This document shows, piece by piece, positions 36,225-37,113 of a DNA stretch of 37,546 bases. The DNA comes from a virus (taxonomy: Duplodnaviria > Heunggongvirae > Uroviricota > Caudoviricetes). The DNA lies in IMG/VR virus record IMGVR_UViG_2713896773_000006, positions 1 to 37,546 of that record, one strand, 5' to 3'. A model generated the notes under the pieces. It did not search any database. It had not been told where the DNA came from and saw only the letters and a list, made by a program, of their open reading frames with translations. The position numbers and the translations under genes are program-made. Within the stretch, counting starts at the first letter, position 1, and each line of letters begins with the position of its first letter.

Positions 36225-36586
36225 TATGCTCCAGCCTCCGGTGCTTTTGGCATTACTGCCCAGTGAGTGATATTGACGTTTTCAAGGTCCCCGACCTGAA
36301 ATGTCCACTGCCATTCTCCGGTTTCTTTTTGTCCCCAGGTGTACCAGAGAGAACGCCAGCCAATTAGCCAGCCTTCTCCGTTAGCATCGAATAACAAAAC
36401 ACTTTCATTTGCTGGTGGCAGTTCAGTTGACACTGGTATTACTTTGTTTTCCTGTGCTGCACATTTAGCTTCAAGCGCATCGAATTTACGCACCAGGTAT
36501 TCAGCATCTGTTTCATTTACTTTCAGATCTCGCGGTACACATCTCCCACGAAGAAACCCTTCCATTTCGAAAACATTCATGCGCAT
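36224..36586 (-). CDS. Ea22-like N-terminal module fused to a DUF551-like C-terminal domain
   Basis: [41 protein letters not shown]... is paralogous to the partial gene at 1..474; C-terminus has a Trp-rich DUF551-like pattern (DANGEGWLIGWRS...GEWQW...ITHWAVMP). Confidence 0.55.
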   Translation of the reverse strand: MRMNVFEMEGFLRGRCVPRDLKVNETDAEYLVRKFDALEAKCAAQENKVIPVSTELPPANESVLLFDANGEGWLIGWRSLWYTWGQKETGEWQWTFQVGDLENVNITHWAVMPKAPEAGA

Positions 36587-37113
36587 TTGCGTAACTCCGA
36601 TAACTCGTTAAAGCGTTCCATAAACATCCCGTAGGCATGGCCCGGTGCCAGTGGAATCACGTTGAACATCTCTGTTGCCGGGATACCTTCCAGTACAGGC
36701 CAGAAAGAGCCATCATCAAGCCCGAGATCGCGGCGTTCGGTTGCCAGCATGATGAGATCGGCATATTTCACAGGCGTGCTCATAACCGGGGGTAACCCGT
36801 ATTTCTCACGGATTATGGTGTCTATTTTTTCTTCCATCCGTTTATAGTCAGGAAGAAGGCGTTTCAGTGGTGCGGGGATGTCCTGGCAATACGCTTCTGT
36901 TGCATCATGCATTAACGCTTCAAAAGCAAATTCCTGCGGTACCAGCTGGCTGCAAAGCACCGCATGTTGGGCGACGCTGTAGAAGTGCGAAAGATGACCG
37001 GCAAAGCGACAGATATTTGAAAGGGAAACCGCGATATCGTTAATATCGATGTCGTCTTTATTTATCCTGTCATAATAAAAATGCTTCCCGGAAAAAGTTT
37101 TAATAAATGACAT
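36577..37113 (-). CDS. HD-domain phosphohydrolase (YfbR-like 5'-deoxynucleotidase fold suspected)
   Basis: 178 aa from ATG at 37113 (GGAGAA RBS); His/Asp metal-ligand pattern (...FAGHLSHFYSVAQHA...LMHDATEAY...). Track start 37140 is GTG. Confidence 0.55.
   Translation of the reverse strand: MSFIKTFSGKHFYYDRINKDDIDINDIAVSLSNICRFAGHLSHFYSVAQHAVLCSQLVPQEFAFEALMHDATEAYCQDIPAPLKRLLPDYKRMEEKIDTIIREKYGLPPVMSTPVKYADLIMLATERRDLGLDDGSFWPVLEGIPATEMFNVIPLAPGHAYGMFMERFNELSELRKCA

Follow-up and report, generated by a model that had tools for sequence, protein, structure and literature searches.

Genes and features around the HD-domain ORF

The window, that is, the whole 37,546-nt stretch of viral DNA that was analyzed (IMG/VR record IMGVR_UViG_2713896773_000006), has a P22-like podovirus backbone, with Sf101 and CUS-3 as relatives. 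The gene of interest, the orthologue of yfdR, lies on the minus strand at 36577–37113 and encodes a predicted HD-domain phosphohydrolase of 178 aa. According to the ORF list and the sequence, its 178 codons run from an ATG at 37113 to a TGA at 36577–36579, which is included in the span. A Shine–Dalgarno motif (GGAG, 37120–37123, minus strand) was read directly from the sequence 6 nt upstream of this ATG, which is also the start in the RefSeq model of K-12 yfdR. An in-frame GTG at 37140, upstream of the ATG, gives an alternative reading of 187 aa.

Downstream of yfdR, the yfdS-like gene (36224–36586, minus strand) starts with an overlap of 10 nt with the yfdR end, and its product is identical to K-12 YfdS at 115 of 120 residues. 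By sequence, YfdS is a short mosaic of an Ea22-type N-terminus and a DUF551 C-terminal domain: the DUF551 match scored 22.2 bits against a cut-off of 22, and the N-terminus was 53% identical over 60 residues to the ead/Ea22-like ORF at 1–474. The Ea22-type N-terminal segment common to both genes is encoded by a 120-nt direct repeat (334–453 and 36449–36568, 71% identity), a kind of repeat that could promote recombination or breaks in the assembly at this locus. The yfdT-like gene (35919–36224, minus strand) shares 1 nt of its start with the yfdS stop, and its product is identical to K-12 YfdT at 97 of 101 residues.

Two further genes follow on the same strand. An excisionase ORF (35569–36003) with an HTH_17 domain (PF12728, E = 3e-8) has the position of xis in phage SfV. 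In its long form, it shares 124 nt with int and 85 nt with the yfdT-like gene, and because HTH_17 begins only at residue 34, translation of xis probably starts at an internal Met; the annotation of SfV xis likewise gives the long form. The tyrosine integrase gene (34529–35692; PF00589, E = 3.2e-48), which matches SfV int in length and position, is the last gene of the leftward operon. The gene order yfdQ-R-S-T-xis-int is common to the window and SfV, and that in K-12 is yfdQ-R-S-T-torI. A sequence-only reading of the window had placed the HD-domain gene between int/xis-proximal and Ea22-like genes, and this was roughly right, as the yfdS-like gene with its Ea22-type N-terminus, the yfdT-like gene, xis, and int lie on its 3' side and the ead/Ea22-like gene lies at the other end of the window.

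On the 5' side of yfdR, the last 101 codons of yfdQ (37241–37546, minus strand) encode a DUF2303 segment (PF10065, E = 2.3e-26) that corresponds to the C-terminal 101 residues of K-12 YfdQ (274 aa); the gene is truncated at the window end at about codon 174. Just past the yfdQ stop, the spacer before yfdR contains a hairpin with a perfect, GC-rich 9-bp stem (AAAUGCCCC-UGCG-GGGGCAUUU; 37207–37228, minus strand). When the 130-nt spacer was folded (37114–37243), the stem was present in both the minimum free energy and centroid structures, with a z-score of −2.19. No T-tract was found 3' of the hairpin, and the terminator scan made no call there. The hairpin may serve as a terminator sensitive to antitermination or as an element for mRNA stability.

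In the remainder of the window, genes for a cI-type repressor (5165–5896, minus strand), a cII-like protein (6355–6651), an O-like initiator (6832–7722, plus strand), and an 826-aa protein matched by both primase and DnaB-like helicase profiles (7697–10177, plus strand) were found. The initiator ORF shares 26 nt with the helicase ORF, and the arrangement differs from the classical gene 18/gene 12 pair of P22. The leftward genes at 1–4200 (RecT, Gam-like, and ead/Ea22-like) and at 34529–37546 (truncated yfdQ, yfdR, yfdS, yfdT, xis, and int) lie on one strand, and a circular map would join them into one leftward operon. From the gene order and the analogy with lambda, we infer that yfdR is an early lytic gene rather than one expressed in the lysogen.

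The ead/Ea22-like gene (minus strand) is cut at the window start after 158 codons and yfdQ is cut at the other end, both ORFs being in frame at the window ends. The possibility that the window is a closed circle, its ends joined as a yfdQ::ea22 fusion, was considered and rejected; because the end-to-start junction was contiguous in no complete E. coli genome or phage record, a break or gap at the window ends is more likely. Rather than containing a true fusion, the source is probably a P22-like genome that is circularly permuted and nearly complete but has a gap.

Identity of YfdR and its place in the HD superfamily

The window protein aligned without gaps to YfdR of E. coli K-12 (b2361, cryptic prophage CPS-53/KpLE1), with 173 of 178 residues identical (97%). 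The two differ by five conservative substitutions (K16R, V23D, A99T, V100I, and D169E), none of which is at a catalytic position, and they share their length, their catalytic residues, and the yfdQ-R-S-T-xis surroundings. At the DNA level, yfdR shared 98% identity with Shigella phage SfV orf30 and with the SfIV copy. With a near-identical full-length sequence and the yfdQ-yfdR-yfdS-yfdT-xis neighborhood (yfdQ being partly inside the window), the gene is, on sequence evidence, an orthologue of K-12 yfdR and SfV orf30, and it has thus already been named and partly characterized. RefSeq labels K-12 yfdR as 5'-deoxynucleotidase. Comparisons with K-12, SfV, and one 86%-identical copy gave dN/dS values of 0.09–0.18 for yfdR, on the basis of which it is clearly a functional gene.

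An HMM search against PHROG profiles matched YfdR end to end with phrog_318 (E = 1.7e-109). The closest solved structure was Atu1052 (PDB 2gz4; phmmer E = 1.5e-13 and profile E = 6.6e-31), to which both the full-length sequence and the structure of YfdR are similar, and the predicted fold is all-helical and resembles solved HD-superfamily members. Together with the 4759 relatives retrieved by database search and the dN/dS of 0.09–0.18, these matches put the signal of an HD gene far above chance. The ORF and its HD-type His/Asp ligands, as reported in the sequence-only reading, were confirmed (H50, H69-D70, and D119), and the proposed HD-superfamily phosphohydrolase agrees with the catalytic motif, the predicted fold, and the PDB and PHROG matches.

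The profile and structure searches that had been suggested for identifying the subfamily placed YfdR with Atu1052 and outside the cut-offs for YfbR, the housekeeping 5'-deoxynucleotidase of E. coli. For PF12917 (YfbR-like), YfdR scored 24.7 bits against a cut-off of 25.9, and for the YfbR equivalog NF003009 of NCBIfam, it scored 20 bits against a cut-off of 122; in both cases, only the HD-E-D block was matched, and BLASTP aligned 40 residues of YfdR and YfbR. Membership in the YfbR equivalog was rejected, as YfdR scores under both curated cut-offs and lacks the Trp switch. Sequence comparison thus places YfdR in the HD superfamily, within an Atu1052-like subfamily separate from YfbR. Atu1052 of Agrobacterium tumefaciens differs from YfdR in being a chromosomal protein of unassigned activity, with 21–25% identity.

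YfdR shares with YfbR (PDB 2paq), human HDDC2, and yeast YGK1 a common HD core and the Arg, H...HD...D, Glu, and Asp residues. The catalytic set of YfbR consists of R18, H33, H68, D69, E72, D77, and D137 (PMC8177086), and the equivalents in YfdR are R36, H50, H69, D70, E73, D78, and D119, respectively. The HD-E-D block and D137/D119 were aligned directly to YfbR, and R36 and H50 were assigned by motif position owing to a misalignment of the N-terminus by MAFFT. The HD dyad (H69-D70) is encoded at 36904–36909 on the minus strand and was identified from the sequence and the alignment to YfbR; R36, F37, H50, E73, D78, and D119 are the other predicted catalytic residues. In an alignment of 84 sequences (the query and 83 relatives of 40–69% identity), the metal-ligand motif (H50, H69-D70, and D119) was kept in 82–84 and the catalytic residues in 81–84 sequences, and therefore, catalysis appears to be a function under selection across the family. 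The active site of YfbR type is, as judged from these residues, intact in YfdR. A metal-dependent phosphohydrolase activity is predicted here for the window protein and rests on literature statements for the K-12 orthologue.

Trp19, the switch for deoxyribose selectivity in YfbR, is replaced by Phe37 in YfdR, and the position was occupied by F in 75 and Y in nine of the 84 sequences. The abstract of Zimmerman et al. 2008 reportedly describes YfdR as "another 5'-nucleotidase in E. coli" and is said to support the idea of Trp19-based selectivity.

PHROGs labels the YfdR family as deoxyribonucleoside 5' monophosphate phosphatase, which is also the function of Dmp (deoxynucleoside-5'-monophosphatase) of phage T5, and both proteins are early products said to dephosphorylate dNMPs. 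However, Dmp is non-homologous to YfdR and at most an analogue. It was rejected as the origin of the phrog_318 label, given an hhalign probability of 0.1 and the presence of Dmp (L089:124–858) in phrog_415, which is labeled polynucleotide kinase. The label on HD proteins should not be taken as homology to T5 Dmp.

Distribution of yfdR and conservation of its neighborhood

Copies of yfdR at 95–99% DNA identity were found in 49 phage records, among them those of Stx2c-converting phages and phage cdtI; these copies, as well as those of SfV (orf30) and SfIV, belong to the same gene class as that in the window. Of 5426 complete E. coli genomes, 2971 had the gene at a DNA identity of at least 80%, nearly always at 95–99%. 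Almost all of the E. coli copies were chromosomal, with up to four per genome, and their adjoining genes were annotated as phage proteins. As a discovery, the gene is therefore minor, being a named and partly characterized prophage gene with close copies in over half of the complete E. coli genomes. On a wider scale, the family comprised 22,860 representatives of 50%-identity clusters (E ≤ 1e-3), and tblastn hits came from 333 phage records of many unrelated hosts, with temperate and large lytic phages both represented.

The neighborhood was compared in 80 IMG/VR loci with yfdR at 86–99% identity. Among the 73 informative loci, yfdQ was directly 5' of yfdR in 61 and missing there in 12; yfdS was directly 3' in 55 of the 80 loci and not in 25. 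Some phages had the order cI...yfdR-S-T-xis-int without yfdQ, ST64B had yfdP-Q-R followed by other genes, and an Enterobacter copy of yfdR (66% identical) had neither yfdQ nor yfdS beside it.

Among 154 more divergent loci, DUF2303 was encoded directly upstream of the HD gene in 57, which corresponded to nine of 83 HD clusters at 90% identity and three of 59 at 70%. The pairs were limited to an enterobacterial clade (57–71% identity to the window YfdR) and a Pasteurella-phage clade (35–37%), and the idea of a universal DUF2303-HD gene pair was dropped, as the count shrinks to nine of 83 clusters in two clades. In the Pasteurella-phage clade, a DUF551 protein is encoded 3' of the HD gene, giving a DUF2303-HD-DUF551 trio at about 35% HD identity. 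About ten other loci and a Providencia phage had RdgC in the slot upstream of the HD gene. Divergent loci with the trio or an upstream RdgC are L090–L100 (e.g., L093:3319–3867), L008:3156–3944, L007:3004–3915, and L185:1463–2986. One upstream RdgC was fused to an FtsK-gamma domain. The common upstream slot raised the idea that DUF2303 is a diverged RdgC, and this was rejected, as no profile similarity was found between them.

By this comparison of loci, Q-R-(S) is a real module that is confined to certain lineages, and the HD gene moves independently as a unit of its own. It shuffles among lambdoid and P22-like prophages with varying neighbors, which fits the description in the sequence-only reading as accessory cargo of the early-left region; its function is nevertheless a recognized one, as the gene has a name (yfdR, 97–98% identity) and is labeled 5'-deoxynucleotidase.

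Proposed role of YfdR and its alternatives

The published work on K-12 links yfdR to DnaA binding and inhibition of replication initiation, a connection absent from the sequence-only reading. Multicopy yfdQRS or yfdQRT suppressed over-initiation mutants and inhibited initiation in the wild type (Noguchi and Katayama, PMC4776307). [quoted passage not shown] YfdR is presented in a 2025 eLife paper as a prophage-encoded protein that competes with DnaB for domain I of DnaA. The Phe46-dependent binding to domain I was reported for the K-12 protein, which is 97% identical to the window copy.

We consider it reasonably probable (roughly 0.6) that YfdR combines a nucleotide phosphomonoesterase of YfbR type with a DnaA-binding damper of host initiation, encoded by an early gene of the leftward operon. 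The protein would be a small, all-helical, metal-dependent HD-domain phosphomonoesterase acting on nucleotides, in which Phe replaces the ribonucleotide-excluding Trp of YfbR. Its gene is distal in the leftward operon of a P22-like temperate phage, downstream of yfdQ and translationally linked to yfdS and yfdT; by analogy with lambda, this would be the early PL operon, and the protein would be made early after infection or induction and not from the repressed prophage. In the live phage, the module would damp initiation at the host chromosome. The phage encodes its own O-like initiator and primase-helicase and would not depend on host DnaA and DnaB; because it brings these proteins, a blocked DnaA–DnaB contact at oriC would be harmless to it. 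The conserved active site of YfdR would also work on (d)NMPs or another phosphoester. The authors of the K-12 study drew a parallel with lambda P, another phage-encoded binder of host DnaA and inhibitor of initiation at oriC (PMC4776307). However, lambda P, the helicase loader of the phage, contacts domain III of DnaA, whereas YfdR, an HD enzyme, contacts domain I, and their sequences are unrelated.

Several points stand against this model. The DnaA effect is known only from multicopy or overproduced genes, deletion of yfdQRST was without phenotype, and the authors themselves allow for an overexpression artefact (PMC4776307). The inhibition in vivo needs yfdQ together with yfdS or yfdT, yet near-identical yfdR occurs in loci without yfdQ or yfdS, and most of the divergent family members have no DUF2303 neighbor. 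The poor affinity for nucleotides described for K-12 YfdR also suggests that dNMPs are perhaps not its true substrate.

We regard a purely catalytic alternative as possible at a clearly lower probability. YfdR would hydrolyze nucleoside monophosphates or a small phosphoester to adjust nucleotide pools for phage growth, as do other genes for nucleotide metabolism in phages, and its binding to DnaA would be an artefact of overexpression, as conceded by the authors. The near invariance of the catalytic residues in relatives of 40–69% identity and the very large size of the family (22,860 cluster representatives) are consistent with this, and an E. coli-specific DnaA contact is an unlikely common function for a family found in 333 phage records from unrelated hosts. 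However, the direct binding of His-YfdR to DnaA and its loss with F46A point to a specific interface (PMC4776307). As cited in that study, Zimmerman et al. 2008 found YfdR to be structurally homologous to YfbR and to bind nucleotides with much lower affinity, which also stands against a purely catalytic role. A metabolic-engineering paper cites YfdR for phosphatase activity on CMP; deletion of yfdR did not raise the CMP yield of the engineered strain in that work. As far as these sources describe it, K-12 YfdR is a poor nucleotidase, and its sole cell-level phenotype, the inhibition of DnaA-dependent initiation, comes from overexpressed genes of a decayed prophage. Whereas K-12 yfdR sits in such a prophage, the window copy sits in an apparently complete P22-like phage with its own initiator and primase-helicase, and the module is here in a suitable system for a direct test of the role of YfdR.

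Beyond the dual-function model of enzyme and DnaA binder, a bolder version of it is doubtful, and we give it little weight. The yfdQ-R-S (DUF2303-HD-DUF551) arrangement of enterobacterial and Pasteurellaceae phages would be an old module for host takeover, in which the HD site acts on a specific nucleotide while YfdR docks on DnaA domain I. The substrate would be, for example, a DnaA-associated or alarm-type deoxynucleotide, which goes beyond the trimming of dNMP pools. If true, this would tie nucleotide chemistry to the shut-off of host replication initiation.

A counter-defence role, raised as speculation in the sequence-only reading, stays speculation and appears very unlikely. In this role, YfdR would break down an alarm or second messenger derived from nucleotides, or it would replenish pools hit by a nucleotide-depleting defence, as would suit its accessory-gene-rich region and phage-cargo distribution. 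Some defence systems have been shown to respond to deoxynucleoside monophosphates, for example m6-dAMP (bioRxiv 10.64898/2026.01.15.699771), and a 5'-deoxynucleotidase could in principle clear such triggers. However, the sole phage counter-measure reported against the m6-dAMP system was DNA-mimic proteins (same preprint), no HD nucleotidase was named as a counter-defence factor in the surveyed literature on phage counter-defence, and cyclic oligonucleotides are not cleaved by monophosphatase chemistry. Membership of YfdR in a defence system was likewise rejected, as PADLOC-DB gave no match for YfdR or for its neighbors (the YfdS-like and YfdT-like proteins and the YfdQ fragment).

The least probable reading is that YfdR acts on (d)NTPs as a DatZ-like triphosphohydrolase and not as a monophosphatase, as the DatZ matches were weak and reflect the common HD core, base replacement left no sign in the window phage, the available account of the K-12 orthologue describes action on monophosphates, and the Arg-aromatic pair with E73 and D78 fits the monophosphatase pattern of YfbR.

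Within the wider family, eight members of approximately 350–410 aa (P0122, P0127, P0129, P0136, P0148, P0163, P0172, and P0180) had two stretches matched to YfdR, which suggests tandem duplicated HD domains of YfdR type.
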